Shown: positions 44,001-63,345 of the stretch, one piece after another
Layout: the number at the start of each line of letters is the position of its first letter
Numbering within the stretch: the stretch's first letter is position 1
Notes under the pieces: generated by a model
Databases searched by the model: none
What the model saw: only the letters and a program-made list of their open reading frames with translations
What the model was told of the DNA's origin: nothing
Translations under genes and position numbers: made by a program
From: Macrostomum lignano
Taxonomy: Eukaryota
Length of the DNA stretch: 64,000 nucleotides
Direction of reading: 5' to 3'
Assembly (NCBI GenBank): GCA_002269645.1
Contig: NIVC01003539.1
Location: 28,224-92,223, forward strand

Positions 44001-44289
44001 ACGACTTGATTGAAATTGCGTAACCATATTGCTAACTCGAAGTGAGACTGATACTGGCTGACTGAGAAATTGATTATGTCATAACTTTTTACTCCAATTG
44101 ACTTGCTGTAAGAATTGAATTATAAGGGCCACAATTCATGTTCTCCAATTGAAAAGAGATAGCCCTGATGCGAACAGACTGGAATGCTAATGTAGCGACC
44201 TGGGTTCGAGTCTTAGAAGCGCAAAATAATTTTTTTATTAAAACACCTTAAAAACTAAAAAACTGCTAAACATAAAAAAAGCGCAATAG

Positions 44290-47200
44290 AAGAGCCACCA
44301 TGTCAAACCTAAAGGAGCCACCATGTCGAACATTAAAGAACCACCATGTCGAACATAAAAGAGCCACCATATCGAACATAAAAGAGTTACCATGTTAAAA
44401 ATTAAAGAGCCACCATGTCGAACATAGAAGAGCCACCATGTCGAACATAGAAGAGCCACCATGTCAAACATTAAAGAGCCACCATTTCAAACCTAAAGGA
44501 GCCACCATGTCGAAAATTAAAGAGCCACCATGTCGAACATAAAAGAGCCACCATATCAAACATAAAAGAGTTACCATGTCAAACATTAAAGAGCCACATT
44601 GTCAAGCATTAAAGACCCACCATTTCAAACCTAAAATAGTTACCATGTCAAACATTAAATAGCCACCATGTCAAACATTAAAGAGCCACCATGTCGAACA
44701 TAAAAGAGCCACCATATTAAACATAAAAGAGTTACCATGTCAAACATTAAAGAGCCACCATGTCGAACATTAAAGAGCCACCATGTCAAACATTAAAGAG
44801 CCACCATGTCGAACATTAAAGAGCCACCTTGTCAAATATTAAAGAGCCACCATTTCAAACCTAAAGAAGCCACCATGTCGAACATACAAGAGCCACCATG
44901 TCGAACATAGAAAAGCCACCATGTCAAACATTAAAGAGTCACCATGTCAAACATTAAAGAGCCACCGTTTCAAACCTAAAAGAGCCACCATGTTAAAAAT
45001 TAAAGAGCCACCATGTCAAACATAAAACAGACACCATTAAGAACATTAAAGAGCCACCATGTCAAATATAAAACAGCCACCATTTCGAAAATTAAGGAGC
45101 CACCATTTCAAAAATTTAAGAGCCGCTATGTTAAACATTAAAGGGCCACCTTGTCAAATATTAAAGAGCCACCATTTCAAACCTAAAAGAGCGACCCTGT
45201 CGAACATACAAGAGCCACCATGTCGAACATAAAAGAGCCACCATGTCGAACATACAAGAGCCACCATGTCGAACATAGAAAAGCCACCATGTCGAACATA
45301 GAAAAGCCACCATGTTAAACATTAAAGAGCCAATATTTCAAACCTAAAGGAGCCACCATGTCGAACATAAAAGAGTCACCATGTTAAAAATTAAAGAGCC
45401 ACCATGTCGAACATTAAAGAGCCACCATTTCAAACATTAAAGAGCCACCATGTCAAACATTAAAGAGCCACCGGTTCAAACCTAAAAGAGCCACCATGTC
45501 GAACATTAAAGAGCCACCATGTCAAACATAAAACAGACACCATGTCAAACATTAAAGAGCCACCATGTCAAACATTAAAGAGCCACCGGTTCAAACCTAA
45601 AAGAGCCACCATGTCGAACATTAAAAAGCCACCATGTCAAACATTAAAGAGCCACATTGTCAAACATTAAAAAGCCACCATTTCAAACCTAAAAGAGCCA
45701 CCATGTCAAACATTAAAGAGCCACCATGTCAAACATTAAAGAGCCACCTTGTCAAATATTAAAGAGCCACCATTTCAAACCTAAAGAAGCCACCATGTCG
45801 AACATACAAGAGCCACCATGTCGAACATTAAAGAGCCACCATATCAAACATAAAAGAGTTACCATGTCAAACATTAAAGAGCCACCATGTCAAACATTAA
45901 AGAGCCACCATGTCGAACATAAAAGAGCCACCATATCAAACATAAAAGAGTTACCATGTCAAACATTAAAGAGCCACCATGTCGAACATTAAAGAGCCAC
46001 CATGTCAAACATTAAAGAGCCACCTTGTCAAATATTAAAGAGCCACCATTTCAAACCTAAAAGAGCCACCATGTCGAACATTAAAGAGCCACCTTGTCAA
46101 ATATTAAAGAGCCACCATTTCAAACCTAAAGAAGCCACCATGTCGAACATACAAGAGCCACCATGTCGAACATAAAAGAGCCACCATATCAAACATAAAA
46201 GAGTTACCATGTTAAAAATTAAAGAGCCACCATGTCGAACATAAAAGAGCAACCATGTCAAACATAAAACAGACACCATTAAGAACATTAAAGAGCCACC
46301 ATGTCGAACATTAAAGAGCCACCATGTCAAATATAAAACAGCCACCATTTCGAAAATTTAAGAGCCGCCATGTTAAACATTAAAGGGCCACCTTGTCAAA
46401 TATTAAAGAGCCACCATTTCAAACCTAAAAGAGCGACCCTGTCGAACATACAAGAGCCACAATGTCGAACATAAAAGAGCAGCTATGTAGAACATAAAAG
46501 AGCCACCATGTCAAACATAAAAAAGCCACCATGTCAAACATAAAAGAGCCAACATGAAGAACATTAAAGAGCCACCATGTCGACCATTAAAAGAGCCACC
46601 ATGTCGAACATACAAGAGCCACCATGTCGAACATAGAAAAGCCACCATGTCGAACATAGAAAAGCCACCATGTTAAACATTAAAGAGCCAATATTTCAAA
46701 CCTTAAGGAGCCACCATGTCGAACATAAAAGAGTCACCATGTTAAAAATTAAAGAGCCACCATGTCGAACATTAAAGAGCCACCATGTCGAACATTAAAG
46801 AGCCACCATGTCAAACATAAAACAGACACCATGTCAAACATTAAAGAGCCACCGGTTCAAACCTAAAAGAGCCACCATGTCGAACATTAAAGAGCCACCT
46901 TGTCAAATATTAAAGAGCCACCATTTCAAACCTAAAGGAGCCACCATGTCGAACATTAAAAAGCCACCATGTCGAACATTAAAAAGCCAACATGTCAAAC
47001 ATAAAAGAGCCACCATGTCAAACCTAAAAAAGCCACCATGTCAAACATAGAAGAGCCACCATGTCAAACATAATAGAGCCACCATGTCAAACATTAAAGA
47101 GCCACCATGTCAAACATAGAAGAGCCACTATGTCAAACATAAAAGAGCCACCATGTCGAACATAAAAGAGTCACCATGTTAAAAATTAAAGAGCCACCAT

Positions 47201-47709
47201 GTCGAACATTAAAGAGCCACCATGTCGAACATTAAAGAGCCACCATGTCGAACATTAAAGAGCCACCATATCAAACATAAAAGAGTTACCATGTCAAACA
47301 TTAAAGAGCCACCATGTCGAACATTAAAGAGCCACCATATCAAACATAAAACAGACACCATGTCAAACATTAAAGAGCCACCATGTCGAACATTAAAGAG
47401 CCACCATGTCAAACATAAAACAGCCACCATTTCGAAAATTAAGGAGCCACCATTTCGAAAATTAAAGAGCCGCCATGTTAACCATTAAAGGGCCACCATG
47501 TCAAACATTAAAGAGCCACCATGTCGAACATAAAAGAGCCACCATGTCGAACATTAAAGAGCCACCATGTCAAACATTAAAGAGCCACCGGTTCAAACCT
47601 AAAAGAGCCACCGTGTCGAACATAAAAAAGTCAACATGTCAAACATAAAAGAGCCACCATGTCAAACCTAAAAAAGCCACCATGTCAAACATAGAAGAGC
47701 CACCATGTC
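44290..47709. repeat. 23-bp satellite GAGCCACCATGTCGAACATTAAA; resumes at 62436 to about 62545
   Basis: Well over 100 variant units. The register continues across the Polinton insertion. Confidence 0.97.
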
Positions 47710-47801
47710 AGTAGTATACGTTTTTTTGACACAAAGCCGATTTCCTTATGGCGAAATACATAGTAAGTACAGGCCCAAAAAAATGGCAGAGTCTGAAATT
47801 T
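47710..47801 (+). repeat. Left terminal inverted repeat (92 bp)
   Basis: Reverse complement of 62344-62435 with one mismatch. Confidence 0.97.
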
Positions 47802-48047
47802 GCCGTGCACGCAAACTAGCTTTTACGCAATGAATTAACCAATTAGCTGAATCACTTTTACGCAAACACCTGTCTATCCACCTAAATTCTATCCGCAATG
47901 AATGCAGCTAATTACAAGCCCAACCAAAATTCAATTTGACACAAAGCTTATTTCGCGTATAACTTAACGCATTTAAATTCTTCTTTTCAAGCAGTATTGT
48001 ATATTTCAACTAGATACAAACACAATTTGACGCACAAATTAGCGAGT

Positions 48048-48611
48048 TTACAAATATTGAGGCAGCACTCGTAAAACAAAATTGCGTAATTTAGCATACA
48101 AGTATCGAAACGAACCAGTGCGAATTATATTCCGTTTAAAAGCGCTTCGAATAAAACACTCTAGGTTTCCTCTGGTAGTCAACTTATGAAAAATATAAAA
48201 AATTACCCAAAATCCACAACTTCCACTCTGTGGGTCTTGGATAGCAAAGCGACTATAACACCAATTTTTCGAATTTCCACATTCTTTTCCTAGCCATTTT
48301 GCTATTCTTGGCAATGGTACTAGACCAAGAGAATCAAAATATTCACCAAGTCGTTTGCTACCGCGACCTGCTCGATGACCATAAACCCAAACGCATACCC
48401 AATGTTTTCCGGGCAGGTTGGAGACGTCAGTATTAACGATAAAAAAATAGTCTTTACCGTCTAAAGGTAAGCGTCTAAGTCCACCAACAAAGTTTTGAGG
48501 AAAAACACCAAGAAATACAACATTTAAAAAATGTGCGCACAATTTCGATACAACATTGCGAAGGAAGCGATCTGTTACACCACGATCTAGGATAGAATCA
48601 ATTACTTCCAT
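48048..48611 (-). CDS. Adenain-like cysteine maturation protease
   Basis: IVNTD...PGKHW (His), EYFDSLG (Asp), IQDPQSGSCGFW (Gln, Cys). Overlaps the MCP stop by 10 nt. Confidence 0.93.
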   Translation of the reverse strand: MEVIDSILDRGVTDRFLRNVVSKLCAHFLNVVFLGVFPQNFVGGLRRLPLDGKDYFFIVNTDVSNLPGKHWVCVWVYGHRAGRGSKRLGEYFDSLGLVPLPRIAKWLGKECGNSKNWCYSRFAIQDPQSGSCGFWVIFYIFHKLTTRGNLECFIRSAFKRNIIRTGSFRYLYAKLRNFVLRVLPQYL

Positions 48612-49924
48612 ACTGTGCCAGGAACAATGTCGCGAAGTTCAGTCAGTTGCAGTTGCTTGTCAAATATACCTCCAAATATGACGTTGTACACGGTACTAGT
48701 TGCAGCATTGAAGCGTAACTCTAGTTTTACATTTCCTTCCTTATACAGTTGCACTCCCCGTCCGACACCAGGTTCACTTCCAAGACTGAATGCAAAAATT
48801 GAGTAACCATTGGCGTAATCCAGCATATTAAATCCAATATCTCGTCCCTGTAGATAGATTCCAAGCTGTTGTAGCAAAAAATTATACTCTGTCACACAAT
48901 CATCTCCAAAGTTTGTCTGCAGCGGACGCGATGGTACCGAGTCTCCATTCACAAACACACCAATGCTGCTCACATTTGCATGCTCAAAGTTGAACGGATT
49001 TGTGTCCATGCTTCCATTGAATGCCTTGTTGCTTACGATTGCCATCAATAAAAGCCGTGGTACCCCACTAGGAAACAAATTTTCATGCGTATGGCTAGAC
49101 GATCCTCGGGGTATAGTAAACGTACCAAGGCTTAGACTTCGGTGCGGATATAATGCATTGTGACTTTTAAGTCCATGAGCATGTGCACTGATAACACTCG
49201 GCGAGGGTTGAACAAACCGCAATCGTAGTTCTGCACGCAAAAACTTGATCTCATAGTCTTTTAAAACCGCACCAGCTTCTAATGTTGACCCGCTCAGGAC
49301 AAATTTACTTTTTGCCGGTATGAGCTTGATCCGTAGTGGTGTCTTTGATAGTAGATACCGAGGCTGACGAAACAAATCCAAGAATAACGGCCCCGATACA
49401 GTGCACCGCCTATTGTTAGCAATGAGCGCCTGCCTCTTTGTTCGTCCATCGTTTTCACTTGTTGCATTCATTTTACCAGCTGTATCCTTGTAAAACCCCC
49501 ACGGCAGTAAACCAGCCTTCTGAGCTGTATGTCCATATTCCAGTAATGTAAGAAGCATAGCCTTGTATGGATACATAAAACTACCACCTTCAACTACAGT
49601 ATCGCCAATAGTAAATTGAACGTCCTCAAACAATGTTCCAATAACCAAATTATTCAAACAAACAAAATTTTTCGTTGCATCTATAGGTTCACCTTCACTA
49701 TCACTAACGCTGAAGCATACCGTGAGCACAGTTTCTTGTAGATCCAAATACAAATCGCCTGCAGGCACAACTTCAAATTCGATAGGTGATCCTTTTGTAA
49801 TACCATGTTGCGGTTGAATGTTAGTATATCGATTATCCAAAACACTAAACTGAACAGGACTTTGATCAAATAGCGACAATTCACTTTTAAGAGCAGCAAT
49901 ATCAGGTCCAAGCAAATGGTTCAT
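48602..49924 (-). CDS. Major capsid protein (double jelly-roll, Polinton hexon-like)
   Basis: 440 aa from ATG 49924. KSELSLF...P.Q...GSPIEF...DLYLDLQETVL, GPLFLDLFRQPRYL, FNGSMDTNPFNFEH and EGNVKLELRF recalled as Polinton MCP motifs. Confidence 0.88.
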   Translation of the reverse strand: MNHLLGPDIAALKSELSLFDQSPVQFSVLDNRYTNIQPQHGITKGSPIEFEVVPAGDLYLDLQETVLTVCFSVSDSEGEPIDATKNFVCLNNLVIGTLFEDVQFTIGDTVVEGGSFMYPYKAMLLTLLEYGHTAQKAGLLPWGFYKDTAGKMNATSENDGRTKRQALIANNRRCTVSGPLFLDLFRQPRYLLSKTPLRIKLIPAKSKFVLSGSTLEAGAVLKDYEIKFLRAELRLRFVQPSPSVISAHAHGLKSHNALYPHRSLSLGTFTIPRGSSSHTHENLFPSGVPRLLLMAIVSNKAFNGSMDTNPFNFEHANVSSIGVFVNGDSVPSRPLQTNFGDDCVTEYNFLLQQLGIYLQGRDIGFNMLDYANGYSIFAFSLGSEPGVGRGVQLYKEGNVKLELRFNAATSTVYNVIFGGIFDKQLQLTELRDIVPGTVWK

Positions 49925-49925
49925 G

Positions 49926-50384
49926 CTACTTTTCAAACAGACTAAAAAGTTTCTTGCTTGCAGTAGCAGTTCGACGTTTTCCTATACCACCGGTCTTCTT
50001 GCGTTTTCTTTTGTTCACGCGTCCCTTTCCACACTGTCTTGTTCGTCGTTTCTTTTGCCGTTTCTTCTTTCCTAAGCTTATAGCCACTCCACTGGTTCTT
50101 TTCCTTCGCTTTGGTCTCGAAACTGCAGTTGTATTAAACATCTCTTCGCTCGATTCTGTGTCCAAGTGACGCTTCCGACCCATACCAATTTTTGCTGTCG
50201 CACTTTTCAAATACTCCAGACCACGATCCAAGAAATCTTTCTTTGCGTTGCGTAGTACAGGATACACCAATCTGTCCGCCAAATTTGACAAAAAACCGTA
50301 ACCTTCGTAAACAGGAATGCCATATCCACCTCCACCTTCAGCAGATCTATTCGGACCAGAATAAAAAGCAAAAATAGGATCCAT
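49926..50384 (-). CDS. Basic putative virion core / DNA-condensing protein
   Basis: ATG 50384. Gly-rich GGGGYG...YEGYGFL head and a very Lys/Arg-rich C-terminus. Position between integrase and MCP. Confidence 0.7.
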   Translation of the reverse strand: MDPIFAFYSGPNRSAEGGGGYGIPVYEGYGFLSNLADRLVYPVLRNAKKDFLDRGLEYLKSATAKIGMGRKRHLDTESSEEMFNTTAVSRPKRRKRTSGVAISLGKKKRQKKRRTRQCGKGRVNKRKRKKTGGIGKRRTATASKKLFSLFEK

Positions 50385-50425
50385 TTCAACAGTCTTCTCT
50401 TCGTCATGCAATCCCAATTCATGTG

Positions 50426-51586
50426 TTACTTATACACTTTAGAAAATAGTTTAGCAGTCTTTGCGTCAAGATCATTTTCGTTTAACCACTGACTTCTTGA
50501 GATTGGCATACCTTTCCATTTTACTAGATACAGACGACTTCCATTTTTCGCTCGATCAGTTTCAATAACTTTTTCAATTTCATTAGGTGTTTCATCTGTC
50601 TCGTTTACCAACATTAGTTCCGCTTGGTTAAACCTTCCTTTCAGCACTTCAAATCCATCTTCAGGGTCCACTAATTCGTACATTGGCGGGTCTGTCAAGT
50701 GTACACGATGAATGCGATATTTTGAATTACTCCAAGTCGTAGTGTATCCTTTTTCAAATGTTCCTCGACGTCGTGTAATTCTAACCCAATCACCAACTTT
50801 AAATTTATTCTCATTCTTTTTAGTGTACGACTTCGCAAACATTTTGTCCCACAAAATTCCTTGTAAATGCGGGTCTGTCTCTACCCGTTTTGGTGTTTCT
50901 CCACTCAAGGATCGATGAGGACTAGAGTTGAAATTATCTTCCAATTGCGGTAAAATGTCAAACCATCGAGGTAAATTTTTTGCTCGAAAGTATCGTAATA
51001 GACGTTCCTTTAACGAGCGGATAAATCGTTCAGCCATGCTTGCCTTGTAATTGCTTTGGCTAACAAAAAATCGAACTCCTTCCTGTTTCAGCATTTGACG
51101 TGTAGCTCTTCCGAGAAACTCCATACCAGCATCACCTTGTAAATAAACAGGCTTAAAACCACTTCGAAAAATCTCTAGTAATACTTGACTAACTTCTGAA
51201 GGCTTCTTTGTACGCAATGGTCTTAGTCGTACAACTCTAGTAAAACAGTCGATAAGAACAAGTATGTAACGATAACCTCGATTTTCCGTCTTGTATTGAG
51301 GTAAATCTGCCAAATCGATTTGAAACTGAAACTTTGCAACTGGTGGCACACTAATTTTTGGAGTTGGAAAGTTTCGTCGTGTTTTTCGAAATAAATGATG
51401 CTCATTTGTTGATCGCACCCAATTATCAACTTCGCGCTTTGCAACTTTGTTCGTAATCTGTGGAAACTTTTTACGTACTTCACGAACAAGTATAGTCTTG
51501 TTACCACTAAATGAAGTAGGCCTGTTCAAGTTAAAAAAAGCATCCGTCAAAAATTCTTCAATTTCCTTACGCACTCGCTTCATCAT
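50426..51586 (-). CDS. RVE (DDE) integrase with C-terminal chromodomain
   Basis: FQIDLADL (D), YLQGDAGMEF (D), KASMAERFIRSLKERL (E). Chromodomain EIEKVI...YLVKWKGMP...QWLNENDL. Confidence 0.96.
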   Translation of the reverse strand: MMKRVRKEIEEFLTDAFFNLNRPTSFSGNKTILVREVRKKFPQITNKVAKREVDNWVRSTNEHHLFRKTRRNFPTPKISVPPVAKFQFQIDLADLPQYKTENRGYRYILVLIDCFTRVVRLRPLRTKKPSEVSQVLLEIFRSGFKPVYLQGDAGMEFLGRATRQMLKQEGVRFFVSQSNYKASMAERFIRSLKERLLRYFRAKNLPRWFDILPQLEDNFNSSPHRSLSGETPKRVETDPHLQGILWDKMFAKSYTKKNENKFKVGDWVRITRRRGTFEKGYTTTWSNSKYRIHRVHLTDPPMYELVDPEDGFEVLKGRFNQAELMLVNETDETPNEIEKVIETDRAKNGSRLYLVKWKGMPISRSQWLNENDLDAKTAKLFSKVYK

Positions 51587-51867
51587 CAGTTAGATTGATG
51601 CTAGTCGTTTGACAGTTGCAACAAAAGAACGAAGCCTCGATCGAATCTCCGTCAGTATCCTCGTTGTGCTCCTTTCCCAGAAACGGCACACATTCAGATT
51701 TTATGCAAAAAAACTCACAGAGACGAATCAAAAGTTTTTGGAAGATAGATGACATGGTTTGTCTTATTAAACTATATATTTTTCATAAACAAAAAATTAA
51801 CCTTTTTAAAAAGCTTATAGTGCTCGAATCAATTTTGTTAAAACGTAATCTGTAATTTTAAAACAAC

Positions 51868-52557
51868 TTAATTCAGTGTTTGATAATTTTCAAACAGACT
51901 AAGATCCTCCTTTGCAACAGTTTTTGGAGCAGACATTAGCTCGTTTCGTACATGACGCCCGATTTGGTTTGCTGCGATTCCACGTTTTCGAAGAAAGTCT
52001 AAAAATGTTTTTAGTCCACTAGGCGGTTGAGTCTCGTGTCGCTTAAGCGGTCTGTCTCGAACAACATATTCCATGAGATCTTGTATCTCGGCATCAGTCA
52101 AATTAGCCAGCATTGGTTCTGCATTCTTGTCCATGTCCGAAAATAGGTTTTGAGCGAGAGCTTCGAAACGTGGTAAAAAAACTTTAGGAATTTCCCTTGA
52201 TTCGCTGGCATATGAACTTCTTACAGTAGTCCCTTTGCGAACAAGTGACAGATTGTCCTCGTCTCCAGTGCGATAGACTTTGCGCAATTTTAAAAGTTTG
52301 TCTTCCAATCTGCTTCGTTTCAATTGAGCTGTGTAATTTGGCTCCTTTTCCATTTCCTTGTCCAAGTTATCCATTTGGTCTCTCATTTCCACCATATTTT
52401 TTGCCAGAGCATCTTGCGGTGCGTCTAAAACTTCAGTTTTTCGAGGTGTCTCAGCAGTTGGTGACGATCCTTGCTCTGCACCTTGACATGCAGATTGATA
52501 CACAGATTCAGGTACTAGATACATTCGTTGAAAACTACTACTCTCGTTAGTTCGCAT
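51868..52557 (-). CDS. Hypothetical Polinton protein (229 aa, coiled-coil-rich)
   Basis: Clean ATG-to-stop ORF in the gene array. N-terminal RMYLVPE resembles the KMxLVP starts I recall from Polinton proteins. Confidence 0.7.
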   Translation of the reverse strand: MRTNESSSFQRMYLVPESVYQSACQGAEQGSSPTAETPRKTEVLDAPQDALAKNMVEMRDQMDNLDKEMEKEPNYTAQLKRSRLEDKLLKLRKVYRTGDEDNLSLVRKGTTVRSSYASESREIPKVFLPRFEALAQNLFSDMDKNAEPMLANLTDAEIQDLMEYVVRDRPLKRHETQPPSGLKTFLDFLRKRGIAANQIGRHVRNELMSAPKTVAKEDLSLFENYQTLN

Positions 52558-52567
52558 TATATTCCTA

Positions 52568-52995
52568 CTACTTTCGTTGAATTGATCGTATTAAATTCGC
52601 TGCTCCCGCGGCGGTACCAACTACTCCAGACGTTATCCCAAGCGCAGTGCTTATAGCAGGTAGAGCGGCAATAATTGGAGCCAAAAAAGGTAAAAATCCT
52701 CCGTGTTGGACAAGTATTTTCCTTTTTGCAGTAATTGGAGTCTTCTGTTCCAAAAGCTGGCGTATATATCTGCGATGCTTCTCAAGTCGTCTTTTGTTAC
52801 AGTTACTAATTTTAATACGTCCACTAATAATATTAAACAGAAAGTCTACTAGACATCGTATCTCCGACTCTGAAAGTGTTTGTAAAAAACTTTTTCTCTG
52901 CTTTGGATGCTTTAGCCGATAAACAATTTGTAGTAAAAAAGCACACTGACACAATGAGCGAGCATTTTGTTTTCCTTTTCTGTTAGTTCGCTCAT
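52568..52995 (-). CDS. Conserved Polinton virion protein with QHGG/FLPFLAPII amphipathic tail (protein VI-like); start unresolved
   Basis: K.RK..L......I..L.D...N...G.I.I....KRRL.KH...IRQL...KRKILVQHGGFLPFL pattern. No in-frame ATG. ATG 52995 joins if the A6 run at 52935-52940 is really A7. Confidence 0.72.
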
Positions 52996-53051
52996 TCTTA
53001 CAAAACAAATTCACAAAATTTTCTATTACACAATTAATCTTTGCTTATAAA

Positions 53052-54041
53052 TTAGTCCGACCTATGTTTAAAATGCAGTACGACAACAACGTGTGCTCCC
53101 GGATCAAAATTAAACGGTTTTCCGCGCTGGTCCGATAGTCGAATCGAAATCTCGTGAATTTGTTGTCGATTTGTTTTCAAGTAGTAGGGTGTTTGCAATG
53201 CACTGCTATCGCGTATAAGTTCTCCGTTTTTCTTTTGTTGGAGTTCCACAACTCGAAGCAACGGTACTGATGTACTTCCCACTGCTTGATACTCGATTAT
53301 ATCTGTGTAACAGTACATGTAAACCGTTTTACTAGGCATCGGAGAAGGTAGCACAGCATCCAAGTAGGTTTTGTTAATGCGCCAAACACGATTTCTCAAC
53401 CAATATTGGTGTACTTTGATGTACACTTCTCCTTCCGTTTTTCGAAGATAGTCTCCATGCGAAACAAGTCGTATAGCTTCACCAGGCGATAGAACACAAT
53501 AAAAAACATAATAGTTCTCAGGTACTAGCGCTAGAGTATTGTCGAGACTTTTTATCAAATCCAAGTATGAACCATCCGGTGGTTGTACACTACCAGCGGC
53601 AGGTTTTGATAATTTTTCCGAGACAAGTCCAGAAAGTTTCTTCCAAGAGTCAAATTTGAAAGCGTCCATAAATGTAACTGGTAGTTCTAATCCAATAGTT
53701 TTTTCGCCTGAATTTCGTAAAAGCCAGGCAAATTTTTCATCTGTACCAGACGGTTGCCAGGAAACGTAAGCATCCAAGTCTGCCTCTGCCCAAACACGAC
53801 CCCAATAGTTTTTCTTTAATCGTATTATTGAGTCAATGTCCGCAAAATATGGAACTTCAAATCGACGCTCACGATGAGCATTTGGCGTCGTAATTGCTCC
53901 ATGGCACAGTAATTCAACTAGTGCAACCTCGAAGAATCCGTTCAATAAATTTATTGGTTCAGTTAGTCGCACTCGAAATTCATTAGGCGAGTTGGTTTCG
54001 TAACTGATATCGTTTGACGGCAAAAAAACGTAAAAACTCAT
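53052..54041 (-). CDS. Minor capsid protein (penton, single jelly-roll)
   Basis: ATG 54041. FYVFLPSN...NSPNEFRVRL..PINL..GFFEVALVE and C-terminal YCYTDIIEYQAVG...PLLR...ISIRLSDQRG.PF.F...VVLHFK. Confidence 0.87.
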   Translation of the reverse strand: MSFYVFLPSNDISYETNSPNEFRVRLTEPINLLNGFFEVALVELLCHGAITTPNAHRERRFEVPYFADIDSIIRLKKNYWGRVWAEADLDAYVSWQPSGTDEKFAWLLRNSGEKTIGLELPVTFMDAFKFDSWKKLSGLVSEKLSKPAAGSVQPPDGSYLDLIKSLDNTLALVPENYYVFYCVLSPGEAIRLVSHGDYLRKTEGEVYIKVHQYWLRNRVWRINKTYLDAVLPSPMPSKTVYMYCYTDIIEYQAVGSTSVPLLRVVELQQKKNGELIRDSSALQTPYYLKTNRQQIHEISIRLSDQRGKPFNFDPGAHVVVVLHFKHRSD

Positions 54042-54098
54042 TTTGAAATAAAACACAAACTAATATTGACAACAGTTTATAATTTGCTTATAATAATA

Positions 54099-54788
54099 TT
54101 ACACAAACTTTGCATCACATTCACGAGTATAGACAACTTGTTCATCACCAGAAAATATTCCTGTTCTCAATCGTAAAAAATCTGGTGTCACTTGCCGCAG
54201 GTCAATGAATAAATATGAAAAAGGTTTGTTATTTGTTGCGTCTTCATACACATTCACTAGAAACCTACTATTACGCGGATACATTTGTCGACCGAGATGT
54301 TCAACTGTGGTTCGATCGCGCACACTACGAGTTAGACAAATATAACTAGCTGATAAACTTCGCATGCGTGCTTCTGGATCAGACTTGTTAAAAAGACCTT
54401 GACAAAGGTACAGACAAGTCAAAGGGATATGATGCGCATGCTTTGTAAACATACTAGTAAATTCTGGCAACTTAGCAATCTCGCTTTGCAAGTCGTCAAC
54501 AACAACCAAATCGTGTGGTAAAAAACGATTAATCATCTGTGGTGTGAATTCGGGTACAAAAACAATAGGGTCAAGACCGCTTTTTTGCCAGCATGTTCTA
54601 ATTCGTTGTTGATCGTCTGGTTTCAAACTTGATCCATGGCACCAAACAAGACGGCACGGTTTTTTATCAAATAATTCTTTTCGTTCAGTCAACAAACGCA
54701 ACGTCCATTCAGTTTTACCCGAGTTTGAAGGTCCAGCAATAATAAATGTAGAATCGTGAGCTAGTTGCATATTGTATGGCTGCTGCAT
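54099..54788 (-). CDS. A32/FtsK-like genome-packaging ATPase
   Basis: ATG 54788. Walker A AGPSNSGKT, Walker B LVVVDD, HH..LTCLYLCQ, KPFSYLFIDL. Confidence 0.93.
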   Translation of the reverse strand: MQQPYNMQLAHDSTFIIAGPSNSGKTEWTLRLLTERKELFDKKPCRLVWCHGSSLKPDDQQRIRTCWQKSGLDPIVFVPEFTPQMINRFLPHDLVVVDDLQSEIAKLPEFTSMFTKHAHHIPLTCLYLCQGLFNKSDPEARMRSLSASYICLTRSVRDRTTVEHLGRQMYPRNSRFLVNVYEDATNNKPFSYLFIDLRQVTPDFLRLRTGIFSGDEQVVYTRECDAKFV

Positions 54789-54790
54789 TT

Positions 54791-55234
54791 TCAAGCACCA
54801 AAGCGTTGCTTAACTTGCATAACCTTGGTAACCAACTTCGCAGCTAGTTTTTCTTTCCAACCAGTAGACGGATCGTGGGCAATCTCTCGTGCACCAGATT
54901 CTAATAGCTTATCAGCTTTTAACCTCTCTTGCACGTCAGAATTTTTATCATAGGCCACGTCGTGAAGCATGCACAAATTGTCAAGCCGATTAATTCCTCG
55001 TTGTCCTTTTGCTAGCCTAGCTTGCAGTTGCGTACCTGGACCACAAAACTGATATCCGCCGGGTAAATGTGCTTCAAATGGTAAATGATTAATTAACCAA
55101 TTTACGACACCATAACCTTGTTGCTTTTTATTAATCTTTCTAATAGATTTCTTCTTTTTACGAATGCTCTTCTTTTTCTTTTTAAAACCTCGATCTTTCG
55201 CTGGAGACATTTTTACAACATATATTTTAGGCAT
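54791..55234 (-). CDS. Parvovirus-type phospholipase A2 domain virion protein
   Basis: Ca-loop GYQFCGPGT and catalytic NRLDNLCMLHDVAYD. Basic N-terminus followed by QQGYG. Confidence 0.9.
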   Translation of the reverse strand: MPKIYVVKMSPAKDRGFKKKKKSIRKKKKSIRKINKKQQGYGVVNWLINHLPFEAHLPGGYQFCGPGTQLQARLAKGQRGINRLDNLCMLHDVAYDKNSDVQERLKADKLLESGAREIAHDPSTGWKEKLAAKLVTKVMQVKQRFGA

Positions 55235-55325
55235 AAATTTTTAAAATTGCTTATAGTATTTACAAAGCTCTCGCATAGTGCACCAATCACCAAAGAAAAA
55301 AATCAGTTTATTATTATTATTATAC

Positions 55326-55808
55326 TTATTGGCCAGTGCTGCCAAAGCCGCCAAAGCCGCGCCGCTTGGTCGGCGGCTCAATCATCCGAATCGAATTGTC
55401 TGCTTCAGTCACATAGACTGAAGCAAGCACGGCCTGCTCCAGAACCAGTTGTGCAATACTGAGCCCGGCATAGTACTCAAAGTCTTCCGGACTGTAATTA
55501 AACAAGACTATACAGATTTCACCAGTATAGTCGGGGTCGATTACGCCACCGCCAACAAATAAGCTGTGCAGAGCCATGCTGGAACGTCCCGCTATCCTGC
55601 CATAGGTACCAGGCGGTAAGCGAATTTTGAGTCCGGTTCGCACACTCCGGGACTCGTAGGCCGGAATGGTACCATCGACGCCAGCGCAAAGATCATACCC
55701 GATCGACCCGACAGTTTTTCGGGTCGGAATCGTTGCCGAATCGTATAGACGTTCAACTAAAAGCTTACGATCAGTTAGTTGTTGTTGCTGCTGCTGCTCG
55801 GGATTCAT
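55326..55808 (-). CDS. dut: Trimeric dUTPase
   Basis: All five motifs present: GYDL, GRSS, GVIDPDYTGE, AQLVL, RGFGGFGSTG. ATG at 55808. Confidence 0.96.
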   Translation of the reverse strand: MNPEQQQQQQLTDRKLLVERLYDSATIPTRKTVGSIGYDLCAGVDGTIPAYESRSVRTGLKIRLPPGTYGRIAGRSSMALHSLFVGGGVIDPDYTGEICIVLFNYSPEDFEYYAGLSIAQLVLEQAVLASVYVTEADNSIRMIEPPTKRRGFGGFGSTGQ

Positions 55809-56132
55809 GTCGATTCTTGTAGCTGAAAGTTTAAAAAAAAGTTTTTTTTCTTGAAACATGAACGATAGCACTACATTTACGTCTACTACAAACACAAGCT
55901 TAGTCTTGAGAATCTAACTATAAAAAATATACTTTTTCAAATAATTAAACACAAAAAAGTGCTAAAATTATAATTTAAACGAATGCCGGTATCATTTATT
56001 TATTGTAAATAATGATCAATGAAAAAATTAATGATGGGTTACAGTCTTCTATAGCATGCTATTACTTTGTACAACAAAAGAGATCAGAGCATATTGTTAA
56101 TTAATTAGCCAAGTGCCAGTGTCCAAAGGGTA

Positions 56133-56431
56133 GCGAATTAATTGAACTTGTCCAGGATCGCTTCGTATCGAAGAAGCTTAGTGCAAGTTTTCTTTGTTGC
56201 ATCAAAAAAAACTTTCTGTTTTCGAGAACGAATGGACTGTATGCGCGAAAACACAAGTTGTCGCTTGTGTAAGACTCTTAAATAGTCTTGATGCTTTAAA
56301 CTGCTCTGTGCGGCTTTAGAAGCAGTACTGCTCCAGCTTTGCGACCGATTGAGACTGGAACTTTAAACGATTGCTGCTTAACCAGACCGGACCGGACTGG
56401 ACCGGACCGGACTGGACCGGACTCCCCGCGC

Positions 56432-56463
<32 letters not shown>

Positions 56464-57177
56464 ACCACCACCACCGCCGCCACCACCACCACTGCCGCCG
56501 CCCGCCCCCACACCACCGTGGGACGTATTTGTTGACAGTGTGCTTGCATGGCTTTTGCGATAAACGCAGAGCATCAAGTCTAGCTGCTCGATTGCTCTAT
56601 ATTGCCAATTACTACCTCGAGATTGAAAATTGTCAATTTTTATTAACAACTGATTAATAACGCGTGCGAACCAGTCATTGTAGGCCTCGGGAGATAACAG
56701 CATGTCACTGTTTGTAATCGTCTCATCAAATGATATTGTCGCAATGTTGGTATTAAAATAGACCGAAATGATCTCTTCGCTGCTCGAGCCATCGTTGTCG
56801 TCTGCTGCTGTTTTCGGTCGAAATAGTGTCACTTTCAAGTGAAAGCAGACTCTTATTAATAAACTGGGTGAGCCAATTTTTTCCAATATTTTAAATATTG
56901 GTTCTCTTAAAGACGCAATCAACTCGCCAGGAAGTAACTCGCCAGAGCTGTTGCCTTGTTGTTCAAGAGTGGGAGTAAATTCGACAAAATTTACCCGACC
57001 ACGATGAGCTGACTCGCGCAAAGCGATGGACCACCCATCTGGTGGGTTTTCGATCAGGTTTTGCAGCGATCCGGTCAGTAATCGTTGCGGTGAAAAACAA
57101 GCACCATGCGAGTGAGCATGCAGCTCGGCTTGATTACTGAACTTTTTTCTGCAGATTTGGCATTGTGCACGCGGCAT
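56133..57177 (-). pseudogene. Remnant of protein-primed PolB: C2H2 finger plus N-terminal domain, low-complexity junction, then a C-terminal-like fragment in another frame
   Basis: CQICRKKF...LHAHSH. YFNT...IDNFQSRGSNWQYRAIEQLDL resembles the GSGW region of Polinton PolB N-termini. After the (CCG/CCA)n-(GGACC)n patch, another frame reads LKHQDYLRVL...IQSIRSRKQKVF (about 56330-56133). No exonuclease or palm motifs anywhere in the element. Confidence 0.6.
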
Positions 57178-57400
57178 TGTGTGCACCTAGCTCGACAACG
57201 AGCGTATCGAGCATAATATTAATAGATGATCCGGTTTGTCATTTGCGGCTGTAAGAAAAATGATGATTTGGTTAGTTATAGGTATAGCTGACACGTTTAC
57301 TATTAGAGAAAACAATTGGTAAATAAATAAAAAAAGACAAAATGTTTGTAAAAGAATGCATCGCAACTGCGATTTGACAGCAATTGTTTACTTGTTAAGT

Positions 57401-57958
57401 TTAGTTATTAACAGAGATTAAAAAATCCTTGACATGGTTAAGAATATTATTCAATTCATGAGTGTTTTGAACGCCCATAATAACAAACTTTTTCGAAAAA
57501 AATATGTTACAAAAAAGCCTTGGTTTTGATGCTGATCTAACAGAAACTGCTTGTGGGAAATTTTCTGCATCGTATCCAACCAGATAATTCGAATAGTAGC
57601 CTGCATATCTTTTTAGACTAGAGAAACCGAATTTTGGCCAAAGATGACCAATAAAGCCGACATAGGTACTGCTCTGAATTTTTACTGAATCAAAATCTAC
57701 ACAATTAATAGTGTCGTTGATAAATCGTAAAACTGAGACTATCTGAGAATTTGATTTACAGCCATATATAGTTAGTTTTCCTGCTGGATAAAGTTGGATT
57801 TTAGCATTTGAATAAATTGTCTTTAGCATTGTTGGTCGGCTTAGGAATAGTTTGCAAAACCGGTTTCTGGTCTGTAGCTTCTGTTTGGTCTGCTTTAAAT
57901 CAAATTTTTCAAACGGGTGCAGCTTCAGACTCGCAGTAACTATTAATAGGACAAGTCG
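57401..57958 (-). CDS. TATA-binding-protein-like factor (about 185 aa open frame after a splice acceptor; first ATG only at 57829)
   Basis: Two TBP repeats: LIVTASL...FDLK...NRFCK...AKIQLYPAGKLTIYGCKS and KIQSSTY...YDAENFPQAV...KPRLFCNIFFSKKFVIMG. Compare TBP TALIFSSGKMVCTGAKS, KIQNMVG, YEPELFPGL and KPRIVLLIFVSGKVVLTG. Confidence 0.8.
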   Translation of the reverse strand, partial: RLVLLIVTASLKLHPFEKFDLKQTKQKLQTRNRFCKLFLSRPTMLKTIYSNAKIQLYPAGKLTIYGCKSNSQIVSVLRFINDTINCVDFDSVKIQSSTYVGFIGHLWPKFGFSSLKRYAGYYSNYLVGYDAENFPQAVSVRSASKPRLFCNIFFSKKFVIMGVQNTHELNNILNHVKDFLISVNN

Positions 57959-58168
57959 CTAAAACGGAAAATAAATAATAAGAAAAGTTAAACATGACTA
58001 TACTATCGTAAATTCTAATATTAAATTACAAAACCTGGTTAGCGTACAAGGAGTAGCAAAAAATGTTTTGAGCTTTTCCCTAAAAAATAATATTTCCCTA
58101 GCCAAAAATTTGATAAATATAGTGGAATAAGTTAGTTAAAACTTGGATAAAATTAGTCAAAAATTTTG

Positions 58169-59366
58169 TTACTCATCATCAGAGCTGCTGTACGAGTCGT
58201 CCGATGAAGACACGCTAGCTGTAGTAGCGTCCGCAGCAGCACGCTTTAAAAATGCTGTCTCCTTGGACGCTACCCTGGTTCCAGAGGCAGGTGTACTCAC
58301 CAAGATCTTTGCTGGTGGAGCCTCCACCCAGTCTGTGCCATCTGCACCAGCTTCGGCAGAATTGTTTTGCTGTTTTGCACCGCTGCGTTTTCGAACTTGC
58401 TTTTTAGGCGGCGGTTCAATAGAGGCTGGCGCTGCATTCGATGTAGTCGACTTCTTCGATACGGTGGTGGTAGACCGACGCTTTGCAGGTGACTTGGCAG
58501 GTGTCACCTGGCTTGAATTCTGCAGGCTTTGTTCATTTGCTTCTTCTTGCTCACAGGTAGATGTTGGGGACGGACTCCTGCTTCTAATTGCTGACTTGGT
58601 CGCGGGTAGGTGTGCAAGCACTCCCTTGAACATGTCGAGGCGCTGCAACATGTTGTCGGAAGATTCTATGAGTGTCAGAGAGCGCACAGCGAATGTAATG
58701 CGCCAGACGAGGCAGCCTTTTGGACAATACAAGCTCGTTGCTTGCACTGTCATTTGGTAGGTACCGCTGACACCTTTGAAATCGGAAATGGACACCTCCT
58801 TCCCGTGTGGATGATCGTTGCTGATCCTGATTGTGGCACAAGGGTAAGCAGGCTTTATAGCCAGCCATTGTTGAGGCACAAACTCGAGGACGTCGTTAGC
58901 ATGCTGATGAGCTGGTTTTGTTAGTCGTGCCAAGGGTCGAGCATCTTGAATCTCGTTCAACTTGACCGATAGACCTTTTTCGACTTGACTGCAAAACATT
59001 ATATAAATTATGAATATAGTTTCCTAAAATTAATTGTATAAATTTAATATGGTGCTCACCGGAGAGAGTGGAAGAGTTCCTTATCGCAGCTGTCTGGATG
59101 AAATTGGACACTTACTGCGTCGCGAGAGTCGTGTCTGCAAGACGGATGATCGAGCTCTGGCCTTTCTGCGATTCCACGAAAAAGCTCCATTGGAGCCTTG
59201 GTTTGCAATATAATTGGGTACCATTTTGTACACTCGATTGATGGTTTCCACGCAATAGATCGAAACTGGCAGGACGAACCAGTCGTGGTTGTAGACTGCT
59301 CTCCAACGTAAAAATCGGACTCGAGTCGGAGCGTACAATTGACTCCGTCTTGATGCAAGCTGCCAT
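58169..59366 (-). CDS. Spliced gene, probable OB-fold single-stranded DNA-binding protein with acidic tail
   Basis: 71-nt GT-AG intron 59059-58989 joins ORF 59056-59379 in frame to ORF 58169-58999 (CG/T = Arg). PIILQTKAPMELFRGI resembles the T7-like viral SSB motif. Ends SSSDDSYSSSDDE. ATG 59366 needs one extra base at the 59310-59314 run. Confidence 0.6.
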
Positions 59367-60059
59367 GTCTTACAAGCAATTGAATATAGTATTTCTTTTG
59401 CTGTAATGATTGAGCTCATGAAAAATTGACCATTTCGGGTCTTGTATTTATAGCAAGCTTTGCATGCTGTTTGTGAACTAGTAAACAAATTTAATTGTTG
59501 CGTGCTGATTAAGACATTGTTGCGTGCCAAAGGTGGCATAAGTTTCTAGGGTGGGTTGCATGATTAGGTCTAATTTTACGCAAATGTAGGTTGATATTTT
59601 ATACAATAAAATTAATGAATCTTAGGCACACTAGTTATAAATTTGCAAGAGTAACACGATGGCAAGCGTTTAATAAGAAGACTGCTGGTTGCTGCTTCAT
59701 TAGATTGGTTTTGTTCTCAAGTAGAATGTAATTAAAATATTTTGCGACTTGAAAAATTAGCAATCTTGGATTTTAGAGTAAAAATAAGCTGCACGCGGTG
59801 CTATGAAATTAATTTATTGAAAGTTTTGCTTGCATGTTGGAATTTTTTAGCTCGCACGGTGACAAGAGATTGCTTGAGTAACCTATATATAGAGTGTTAC
59901 TTTTCAAACAGAAAAAGGTATAGTTGTAACTCAGCTTTTGCAGTCCTATATTGAGCAGAAGCTATATAGAGTTACACTATCATGCTGCGACGCGCAGCTT
60001 GTTGGGACTATAATGACTGCCGCTGCTATAACCGCATGCAGTCAGTGCAGTTGACACAC

Positions 60060-60770
60060 AAATGCTGTTTGGACTAAGCTAAATTACTGTGTTGAGACAG
60101 TTAAGCTGGACCACGGCTAAATCACTATTGATACGGTTAATTGCTACTAGACCCATGGCTAAATCACTGTACGTTGAGACGGTTAAGCTGGACCACGACT
60201 AAATCGCTGTACGTTGAGACGGTGGTTAAGCTGGACCATGGTTATAAAACTGGACGGGTGGTTAAGCTGGACGACTACAGCTAAAATTACTGTTGAGTCA
60301 GTTATGCTAGACCACAGCAGCCAAATCACAGTTGAGGTAAAGCTGACCATAGCTAATTCTCACTGTTGAGACGGGTGCTGCTGCTTGGCTCACAGCTAAA
60401 TAACTGGACAGTTAAGCTAATCGGACTACAGCTAAATCCCTGTTGAGACAGTTGCCTGGACCACAGCTAAAATCACTGTTGAGGCAGTTAAGTCTGGACA
60501 ACAGCTAAAATTACTGTTGAGACAGTTAAGCCTTGACTATAGCTAAATCATCGTTGAGGTAGTTAAGCCTGGACTATAGCTAAATCACTGTTGATGCAGT
60601 TTTAAGCTAGACCACAGCTAAATCATACTGCTGAGGCAAAAAAGCCGGACCACGGCTAAAAACTGTTGAGGCAAAAGCTGGACCACAGCTAAATCATACT
60701 GTTGAGGCAAAAGCTGGACCACAGCTAAATCATACTGTTGAGGCAAAAGCCAGACCATGGCTAAAGAAAC
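60060..60770. repeat. Array of about 18 diverged 34-42-bp units with an internal palindrome
   Basis: Consensus CTGTTGAGRCAGTTAAGCTGGACCACAGCTAAATCA containing AGCTG-N5-CAGCT. Confidence 0.9.
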
Positions 60771-60927
60771 GTATGAAAAAAAAATTATTTGCATGGATTA
60801 ATAATTTTTGTTTAATGATGACTGTACAAGATATTGACTTTATATTGAATTAAATAATTTCAATAAATGGCGAATAAAATTGAAAGAATTTTTTAGAATA
60901 ATGAATTTATAGAGATTATATTATTGA

Positions 60928-61566
60928 TTACAGACTTGTTTGATATATACTAAAAGAGCAATTACTTGGACACATTGCTGGCAAAATTTTATGAAGAGTT
61001 AGAAAAAATGTCTTTTTAAGATAGGTCCCAATATTCAAATACTTGAGTTGTATTACAGGTCTTTGTAATTCTACTTGGTAGAAGCCTGTGCTCATTTGAG
61101 AGACTTTTACAGACTTGATGTCCTTCTGTACAATAATTGGCGAGTTTAGCAGCGGTTGAACTTGGGTAGAAATAGCAATTGATGATGATGGTGTTTCAGT
61201 TGCTGTCGTTGGTTTGGTACTTGTAGGCTTACTGCAAGTTTGCTTTGTTGGGTCATTGTAGCTGGTTGGTGATGGTGGTGGTGGTGCATACTGCAGTTGG
61301 TCAGTTGGTCGTGGGTTCGATTGCTGCCTAATTGACTGAATAACATCAGTTCTTGTGTAAATGCGATCTAGCTCAGTTGTCTGTCTCTCGACATGAATCG
61401 AGGTTACTCTGGCGAGAGATGTAGAATATGATGCTCTTGCAGCAGAATTGGATGTGGTGGTGTCGTGGCAAATGCGTTTGCACTGATCTGGAGGTGGCCG
61501 CGTGAAGAAACCATTCTTGAATGCTATAATAATGGATAAGATGAGGGAAATTTGGTATAGGTGCAT
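60928..61566 (-). CDS. Orphan 212-aa protein with signal-peptide-like N-terminus and Thr/Pro/Ser-rich middle
   Basis: MHLYQISLILSIIIAF, CKRIC, PPPP/TKPTT-rich stretch and CPSNC. Clean ORF on the same strand as all element genes. Confidence 0.55.
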   Translation of the reverse strand: MHLYQISLILSIIIAFKNGFFTRPPPDQCKRICHDTTTSNSAARASYSTSLARVTSIHVERQTTELDRIYTRTDVIQSIRQQSNPRPTDQLQYAPPPPSPTSYNDPTKQTCSKPTSTKPTTATETPSSSIAISTQVQPLLNSPIIVQKDIKSVKVSQMSTGFYQVELQRPVIQLKYLNIGTYLKKTFFLTLHKILPAMCPSNCSFSIYQTSL

Positions 61567-61584
61567 GTATACAATGTATATAGA

Positions 61585-61810
61585 AACTGAACTAGCAGAG
61601 AATCAGTCTAAACAGAAACCGAACTAGCAGACAATCAATCTAGAAATTCTGAACTAGCAGAGTATTAGTCTAAACAGAAACCGAACTAGCAGAAAATCAA
61701 TCTAGAGACTGAACAAACAGAGGATCGGTCTAAACAGAAACCGAACTAACAATCAATCTAGAAACTAAACTATAGCGAACAGTCAATCTAAAAAAGAAAA
61801 CTGAACTAGA
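61585..61810. repeat. About 30-bp degenerate tandem repeat upstream of the orphan ORF
   Basis: AACTAGCAGA.AATCA.TCTA units. A GTAAGA donor-like site lies just upstream on the minus strand (about 61828). Confidence 0.75.
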
Positions 61811-62343
61811 GTAGGTGATTATCTTACCTTGTTTAACATAGCGCTCGGCCAATTCCTGCTGACGTGATCGCTTCATTTCACTTAAGATGTAAGTATAGTT
61901 GAACAAGTAGTATAATGTAAACTTGGTTTAAGTTATTTAATATTTTCTGTGTCAGTGTGTTCGTATATATATATAGTATAAAGAAGAAGCATGTTGACGC
62001 AGTTGTTGACATAGTATCTGTAAACCATCTGCTCAAGTTGGTGCAAAAATTCTATAGGCACTCAAGAATAGATCATTTACTATCTTTCTTCAAAAGGGTG
62101 ATAATATTCACAAGTTTTCAATATTTCAAAAACACTTGAAATGTGTGAATAGCTTTGGAGTAAATTTGTCTTGAATGGAATCCTTTGAAGTGTGTTTGTG
62201 TCACCATTGCTAGAATCGGTTACTTGTATTTTGGACAGGTGGATATGCAATTCGTCTGAATAATCACGTTGCGTAAAAGATATTTAGCGTGCACTTGGAA
62301 TTTCAGACTGCGTGCACATGGAATTTCAGACTGCGTGCACATG

Positions 62344-62435
62344 AAATTTCGGACTCTGCCATTTTTTTGGGCCTGTACTTACTATGTATTTCGCCATAAG
62401 GAAATCGGCTTTGTGTCAAAAAAACGTATACTACT
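62344..62435 (-). repeat. Right terminal inverted repeat (92 bp), preceded by extra copies of a 23-bp unit (62296-62343)
   Basis: Ends ...AAAACGTATACTACT. Subterminal TGGAATTTCAGACTGCGTGCACA is repeated. Confidence 0.97.
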
Positions 62436-62639
62436 CATGTCGAACATAAAAGAGCCACTATGTCAAACATAAAAGAGCCACCATGTCAAACATAGAAGAG
62501 CCACTATGTCAAACATAAAAGAGCCACCATGTCAAACATTCAAGATATCCAATTTCAAATGTAAAGGTATAAAGCGCCATGCCAATTTAAAGGAGCCACT
62601 ATAAAGCTAAGGAAATTGTCGCTCTAGCTACTTATTGTC

Positions 62640-63195
62640 TGGATGGTTGCTATTTGGGGATGCTATCTATCTTGGGGATGCTTGCTATTTGGAGGATGCT
62701 TGCTTTCTGGGGGATGCTTGCTATCTGGGAATGCTTGCTATCTGGGGATGCTTGCTATCTGGGGGATGCTTGCTATCTGGGGATGTTTGCTATCTGGGGA
62801 TGCTTGCTATCTGGTGGATGCTTGCTATCTGAGGGATGCTTGCTATCTGATGATGCTTGCTATCTGGGGATGCTTGCTATCTGGGGTATGCTTGCTATCT
62901 GAGGGATGCTTGCTATCTTGGGGTATGCTTGCTATCTGAGGGATGCTTGCTATCTTGGGGATGCTTGCTATCTGGGGGATGCTTGCTATCTGCGGAATGC
63001 TTGCTATCTTGGGATGCTTGCTATCTGGGATGTTTGCTATCTGGGGGATGCTTGCTATCTGGGGGATGCTTGCTATCTGGGGATGCTTGCTATCTGGAGG
63101 ATGCTTGCTATCTTGGGATGCTTGCTATCTGGGAAATGCTTGCTATCTGGGAGAATGCTTGCTATCTGGAGGATGCTTGCTATCTGGGGATGCTT
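62640..63195. repeat. 18-19-bp minisatellite GATGCTTGCTATCTGGGG inside the Helitron
   Basis: Direct tandem units. Confidence 0.95.
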
Positions 63196-63345
63196 GTGGT
63201 CTTGGGAAGATTTCTTATTGCAATTCACTTTCATTGAGCAGTTTGTCTGTTGTCTTTGTGAAGGATTTTTTGGCTGTCTTTTTGTTAATTGTAGAGAACA
63301 GAGATTCTATCCAGATGTCCCCCATCGGGGGGCGAAGATTGCTAG

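Follow-up and report, generated by a model that had tools for sequence, protein, structure and literature searches.

Deletion of the polymerase core from a Maverick element of Macrostomum lignano was followed by its insertion at 17 or more sites

Results

Gene content of the element

The window analysed here (64,000 nucleotides of Macrostomum lignano contig NIVC01003539.1, positions 28,224 to 92,223, assembly GCA_002269645.1) contains a Maverick/Polinton element of 14,726 bp (Table 1). It is bounded by terminal inverted repeats (TIRs) with 104-bp arms that are 96% complementary and end in AGTAGT, and it is flanked by the 6-bp target-site duplication (TSD) CATGTC; matching TSDs were found at 15 of the 17 insertion sites described below. 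The main open reading frames (ORFs) of the element are all on the minus strand.

Table 1. Features of the element in the window (window coordinates).
Feature	Position	Strand	Evidence or remark
TSD, left copy, 6-bp CATGTC	47704..47709	+	within 23-bp satellite
TIR, protease end, begins AGTAGT	47710..47813	+	104/104 identical to full-length C84, 103/104 to C1136
Adenain-like cysteine protease, 187 aa	48048..48611	-	weak Pfam Peptidase_C5, E 0.035; His/Cys motifs present
Major capsid protein, double jelly-roll type, 440 aa	48602..49924	-	Atlas match to DJR-like clusters; Pfam: no match
Basic 152-aa ORF, likely core protein	49926..50384	-	kept in sister families
rve integrase + chromodomain, 386 aa, frame open	50426..51586	-	Pfam rve E 4.5e-8, Chromo E 1e-6; D, D, E motifs
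229-aa ORF	51868..52557	-	kept in sister families
pX-like core-protein gene	52568..52995	-	sibling ORF matches Adeno_PX, E 2.3e-6
329-aa ORF, candidate penton	53052..54041	-	position; no Pfam/PDB match
Packaging-type ATPase, 229 aa	54099..54788	-	Walker A/B motifs; weak Pox_A32 in sibling, E 0.046
Parvovirus-type phospholipase A2 gene	54791..55234	-	Pfam Phospholip_A2_4 E 3.4e-9
dUTPase	55326..55859	-	Pfam dUTPase E 1.5e-29; within ~1-kb diverged tract
Last 66 codons of pPolB, stranded out of frame and with own frameshift after QKVF	56101..56302	-	
Deletion junction, 3,163 bp missing (pPolB codons ~292-1345), one shared base	56302..56302	-	
Truncated pPolB ORF, 293 aa: C2H2 finger, terminal-protein-type domain, Gly-rich linker	56296..57177	-	stop two codons past junction
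Native Gly/GPVRS low-complexity linker	56381..56517	-	Gly-rich at same place in sister families
Predicted PRD1-type terminal-protein (D1) fold; predicted priming Ser189 at 56611-56613	56557..57042	-	structure model + alignment
TBP-like ORF, 142 aa	57401..57829	-	Pfam TBP E 2.3e-7
276-aa ORF	58169..58999	-	unassigned
Second deletion, ~1.6 kb missing, present in full-length siblings and C105	60765..60778	.	sibling comparison
TIR, TBP end	62332..62435	-	104/104 identical to C84 and C2373
TSD, right copy, 6-bp CATGTC	62436..62441	+	

The rve and chromodomain matches of the integrase exceeded the Pfam cut-offs, and the major capsid protein (MCP) was placed among double jelly-roll (DJR)-like clusters with an Atlas score of 0.98 (PF21738 is found on 14–30% of the cluster members), an assignment that is borderline, with a recognition value of 2287, just below the 2300 mark. 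The packaging ATPase and the cysteine protease were recognised by their motifs, with family matches that were weak and below cut-off; we take the His and Cys motifs to have the roles known from such proteases. The 329-aa ORF may be the penton, to judge from its position and motifs; it matched no Pfam family or PDB structure, and its structure model was poor (pLDDT 35). The TBP-like ORF is kept upstream of the protein-primed polymerase gene (pPolB) in sister families, and in C1668 it is, on a by-eye reading, fused to a kinase-like P-loop stretch.

Compared to the adintovirus alpha type, which carries a PF03175 pPolB and a phospholipase A2 (PLA2) gene (PMC8502044), the element has in common the AGTAGT TIRs, 6-bp TSD, rve integrase, ATPase, protease, DJR capsid, PLA2 gene and pX-like domain, and the pPolB of its full-length siblings has the order TP-vOTU-exo-EndoVII-palm. 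It differs from that type in that the dominant form here lacks the polymerase core, that separate ORFs encode PLA2 and the pX-like domain, and that a dUTPase and the TBP-like ORF are also carried (PMC8502044).

The window copy was inserted where a 23-bp satellite of 149 copies has its edge, beside an 18-bp satellite (44286–47710, 62436–62539 and 62641–63196), and several further copies of the element likewise lie in micro- or minisatellites. Internal tandem arrays of 38–40 bp and 31/62 bp (60078–60765 and 61581–61772) vary in length from copy to copy, which accounts for most of the size differences among copies. The ~1.6 kb missing from the deleted lineage at the second deletion is AT-rich (sibling stretch L036:1261-2895). 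Total length fell from ~19.6 kb in the full form to 14.7–15.3 kb in the deleted lineage.

A single deletion removed the polymerase core

An earlier note on this DNA, made from the letters alone, had reported no PolB exonuclease or palm motifs between the TIRs, and a six-frame scan of 47600–62600 agreed: the tested motifs were absent, save two isolated KxY-type matches elsewhere in the element. The features that the note had picked out were also recovered, namely an N-terminal C2H2 finger (weak, Pfam E 0.017, below cut-off) and FQSRGSNW in the 293-aa ORF, GGC/GGT and CCGGT arrays at 56381–56517, and an LKHQDYLRVL...SIRSRKQKVF segment in a different frame from that ORF. Its proposal that the two fragments are the ends of one pPolB was borne out by the genome. 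The N-terminal 216 aa matched 93 places, two of them at 94% identity in open frames of 1,414 and 1,415 aa, and in the full-length siblings on contigs C1136 and C2373 both pieces are joined in a single ORF of 1,411/1,412 aa with PF03175 (E 3.6e-20) and Endonuclease_7 (E 1.4e-11) matches. A third full-length sibling, C84, has a broken pPolB frame, leaving open polymerase frames in two of three contigs.

Compared to these siblings, the window copy shows a clean loss of 3,163 bp at 56302 with a single shared base, running from about codon 292, five residues ahead of the Cys in a likely vOTU motif, to codon 1345. The motifs lost correspond to vOTU, ExoI, EndoVII, ExoII and PolA-C. The expectation of a missing core thus held, with a loss slightly larger than the roughly 2–3 kb proposed, and the accompanying idea that low-complexity filler had taken its place fell, because the Gly/GPVRS repeats are a native linker: the Gly run begins at aa 226 of the full sibling ORF too, and in the window the patch ends ~80 bp before the junction. 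Deletion of the pPolB catalytic core was one event with a single origin. Because that core is gone, and is complete in siblings C1136 and C2373, the window copy is a derivative Maverick and not an autonomous member.

The junction is genuine and shared

A DNA search for the short form gave 91 candidates, of which 40 were scored, so that copy counts here are lower bounds. At least 30 contigs carry the short form (30 of the 40 scored candidates matched the whole 1,301-base query at 97–100%), and the junction letters were identical in 30 of 30. When four sequencing runs from four studies, one of which may be the assembly's own source, were searched with the sibling gene, a joint skipping 3,163 bases appeared in three; the fourth, X18, showed no joint and was also without cover at the 3' end. 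Contig depths for joint and core were ~140:31–35, 143:76 and 16:5, nearer to 2–4:1 than to the assembly's 17:2, although depths are not copy numbers.

The note had named one outcome that would undo its reading, a full PolB collapsed at the GC-rich patch, and a related possibility is that the many copies are segmental duplicates of one dead insertion. Some sites are indeed represented by two contigs (the window copy and C2542, for example) and several contigs have swapped ends. Set against this, the flanks at 17 sites are unrelated and have TSDs of their own, 80 bp separate the patch from the junction, and full-length copies were assembled through the same patch. The same junction in 30 contigs and in three of four runs indicates that it is not an assembly collapse, and together with the flanks it refutes both forms of this explanation, to which we give next to no probability.

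The deleted form spread after the loss

Flanks were taken from both sides of the other 29 contigs with the short form and of two more copies that are partial. They revealed at least 17 distinct insertion flanks of the deleted form, 15 with both ends and a matching 6-bp TSD (13, plus the pairs C593/C4064 and C3713/C724) and two with a single end. The TSDs matched inside one contig at four sites and across contigs at the remaining ones; cross-contig pairing reflects contigs that end within the element or near-identical copies joined with swapped ends. An empty homologous locus with one copy of the TSD was found at C2778 for one insertion site; it was covered by only one of the four runs, X5. A search for the empty site of C4373 returned repeat copies only.

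Copies of the deleted form were nearly identical, with a mean pairwise divergence of 0.10% and a maximum of 0.37% (459 pairs, 31 contigs). Shared variants among them were nested, being carried by 22, 16, 15, 13 and 12 copies, a pattern that fits copies of copies made over repeated rounds of copying. One junction at 17 sites with 0.10% divergence is what spread after loss of an essential gene looks like: the deleted form inserted at 17 or more sites after losing its polymerase, and these TSD-flanked insertions are independent and young. By comparison, the full core was present in 3 of 31 candidates, all of them scored, at two sites. A count of deleted against full copies, which the note had called for, thus shows a very young polymerase-less lineage outnumbering its complete sibling (at least 17 sites vs 2).

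Probable source of the polymerase

We consider it most likely (probability about 0.68) that the polymerase core was lost in the one 3,163-bp deletion and that the 17 or more new insertions were then made with polymerase supplied in trans by intact siblings sharing the TIRs. Full-length siblings with the same ends, which the note had proposed searching for, do exist: their ends matched those of the deleted form at 104 of 104 positions in three of four comparisons and at 103 in the fourth. C1136 and C2373 had 0 mismatches over 6,959 bases, which indicates that the polymerase-bearing form moved in the same period. It is from the matching ends and this shared period of movement that we infer supply by the siblings. 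The fused TP-polymerase of a sibling would prime at the shared ends and copy the shorter genome, and the element's own or the sibling's integrase would insert the copies; a genome 25% shorter may have a copying advantage, as in defective-interfering genomes.

As the main alternative, the deleted element may move without any Maverick polymerase, its integrase cutting and pasting it and host replication or gap repair raising the copy number, as for ordinary DDE transposons. In most copies the integrase is open and has its D, D and E motifs, the fresh TSDs seen at every site fit a polymerase-free route equally well, and polintons lacking polB also stay mobile in butterflies (bioRxiv 2025.02.07.637071). 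We nevertheless regard this route as unlikely, since siblings with matching ends (103–104/104) moved in the same period and the published Maverick model is protein-primed replication from the ends (PMC8097293). The single empty site examined (C2778) showed no excision footprint, which is not decisive, and excision may still occur.

Supply in trans could also have come from a parent that is unassembled or exogenous, or else from one of the sister families, and not from the two assembled sibling sites. Assembled full-length siblings are 2.9% diverged from the deleted form, and a ~1-kb tract (55210–56300, from the junction through the dUTPase) is 10–16% diverged from the full-length sibling vs 1–5% elsewhere. 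No donor for the dUTPase tract above 89% aa identity was found among 119 scored candidates. The 2.9% distance and the missing donor indicate that the deleted form is a mosaic whose direct parent is absent from the assembly; the junction may have arisen in a cross between two variants, and an unassembled true parent may be the actual helper. Moreover, run X5 holds a core that differs in letters from C1136, and the genome has many further pPolB families. However, sister families show little TIR similarity past the terminal AGTAGTA, differing after the first seven bases, whereas the assembled siblings match at their ends and keep the polymerase frame open in two of three contigs. Short clusters of full-length-type alleles also occur in single deleted copies (C4450/C3727, C892, C1135 and C4064) and may be the product of gene conversion with the sibling, old states, or noise left by polishing; if not the last, they could reflect contact with the siblings. 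Overall, a source other than the assembled siblings appears very unlikely to us, and supply by those siblings is preferred.

Capsid genes in the deleted lineage

Most copies have open frames for the capsid protein, ATPase, protease and integrase. The pX-like gene has a frameshift near its start in the window copy (27 aa) that is private to that copy: the gene is 142 aa in 22 of the other 29 copies read, deleted or partial, including C2542 at the same site, and its loss was rejected as a trait of the lineage. On the deleted branch, synonymous to replacement changes numbered 13:1 in MCP, 11:4 in the integrase and 8:3 in the ATPase. The dead C-terminal pPolB remnant, read in its old frame, showed the same bias (11:6), which indicates that the purifying selection on the capsid genes is mostly older than the deletion; this remnant has one later frameshift, common to 29 of 29 deleted copies read at the site. 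These counts say little about selection after the deletion, the copies being almost identical and most of the deleted branch predating the loss. The earlier note had called the element capsid-competent, which is plausible for the lineage from its reading frames and doubtful for the window copy because its pX-like gene is broken near the start.

Other derivatives and sister families

A second derivative of the same family (C4827, C300 and C2428; ~8.5 kb, one site, TSD ATCATA) has lost 1,153 bp of pPolB, the integrase and most of the capsid module, and has its inner part inverted; its joint is also present in run X5. In a third, decayed derivative (C105), window 55225 is joined to 59221, with loss of the dUTPase, all of pPolB and the TBP-like and 276-aa ORFs; the capsid and integrase regions are kept. 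Mavericks abound in the genome: sister families stand at 65–81% capsid identity, and the 119 PF03175 matches belong to many pPolB families, with open frames of >1,100 aa for several of them. A 271-aa protein record joins the terminal-protein (TP) and C-terminal parts of the C889 sister polymerase. As C889 is full-length, the record is probably a false gene model and not another deletion.

Discussion

Two points go beyond the earlier note: the deleted form has been mobilised on many occasions since the loss, and a whole TP-type domain was kept. Modelling of the first 216 aa (pLDDT 76) gave the order strand, strand, helix, strand, strand, helix, loop, strand, in agreement with the LF/PAD-like fold of terminal protein D1, in which two helices accompany a sheet of four or five strands. 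The best 9 of 48,161 solved chains were all Y-family polymerases, aligned chiefly on the little-finger domain (Z 5.2–7.3; for example 4ir1 residues 239–341, Z 6.6, rmsd 2.6, 98 aligned), the best Z of 7.3 being middling when taken alone; Foldseek against the PDB gave no match at E ≤ 0.001. The closest viral models were an adintovirus C2H2-domain protein (E 2.8e-9) and a MELD virus PolB (E 1.5e-4). G188, S189 and W191 were invariant in 8 of 8 aligned sequences, and G188-S189, a Ser next to a Gly, lies in the loop between the helix at 163–186 and the last strand at 192–207. Such a fold with resemblance to Y-family polymerases is the signature described for the TP domain of pPolB, and the same source places the priming Ser or Tyr in that loop (bioRxiv 2024.03.18.585575). 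On the strength of the model, then, the 293-aa ORF is predicted to hold a whole TP-type domain with Ser189 as the priming residue.

Cleavage between TP and vOTU has been proposed (bioRxiv 2024.03.18.585575), and the deletion cuts near that point, so that the remnant ORF is close to a natural cleavage product. It resembles the stand-alone terminal proteins of adenovirus and PRD1 in predicted fold, priming-residue loop and an end at the proposed vOTU cut; those genomes, unlike the window element, keep a separate polymerase gene (bioRxiv 2024.03.18.585575). That the cut spared TP is weak evidence, since any break after aa ~210 of 1,411 would do so, and changes in the domain on the deleted branch (6 synonymous, 9 replacement) showed no departure from neutral (p 0.15). 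It is quite unlikely, in our estimation, that the deletion made a stand-alone TP gene, and with it a packaged defective-interfering Maverick with its own primer protein, capsid and integrase and a polymerase taken from a sibling. If true, the separation of TP and polymerase that has been proposed for the origin of adenoviruses would be re-enacted here in a living system, and this would be a sign of present-day replication in the family.

Non-autonomous DNA-transposon derivatives and defective-interfering genomes commonly have an internal deletion and intact ends and outnumber the complete form. Unlike these, which usually lose mobilising or structural genes, the present element kept its integrase and capsid module and lost only its replicase. 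Non-autonomous Polintons are reportedly listed in Repbase. Polintons that lost capsid genes have been noted (PMC4028283), and it has been called perplexing that defective Mavericks are so numerous in axolotl and tuatara (PMC8097293). In Pieris butterflies, polB-lacking polintons are mobile by a mechanism that the preprint calls open (bioRxiv 2025.02.07.637071). These are similar to the present case in being TIR-flanked, near-identical copies beside polB-bearing relatives that stayed mobile after the loss. There the loss was tied to LINE/LTR cargo and the first case comprised two copies, whereas here there is one clean internal deletion, a kept TP ORF, 17 sites with TSDs and a candidate helper with matching ends (bioRxiv 2025.02.07.637071). 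The literature searched, which also took in PMC10748475, PMC5499653, PMC6431247 and bioRxiv 2022.07.12.499685, gave no account of this Maverick family or of a TP-retaining derivative, and public protein searches gave no useful outside homologues (1, 2 and 4 matches, one of them a chance repeat protein).

Maverick replication and integration are not known to have been watched in an animal. That a polymerase-less form outnumbers the complete one in a very young family shows that an element can do without a polymerase in cis, and the junction provides a natural marker for telling borrowed replication from cut-and-paste. Because the host, for which a candidate helper is named here, is a laboratory flatworm, the question left open by the butterfly preprint becomes testable by observation and knock-down.
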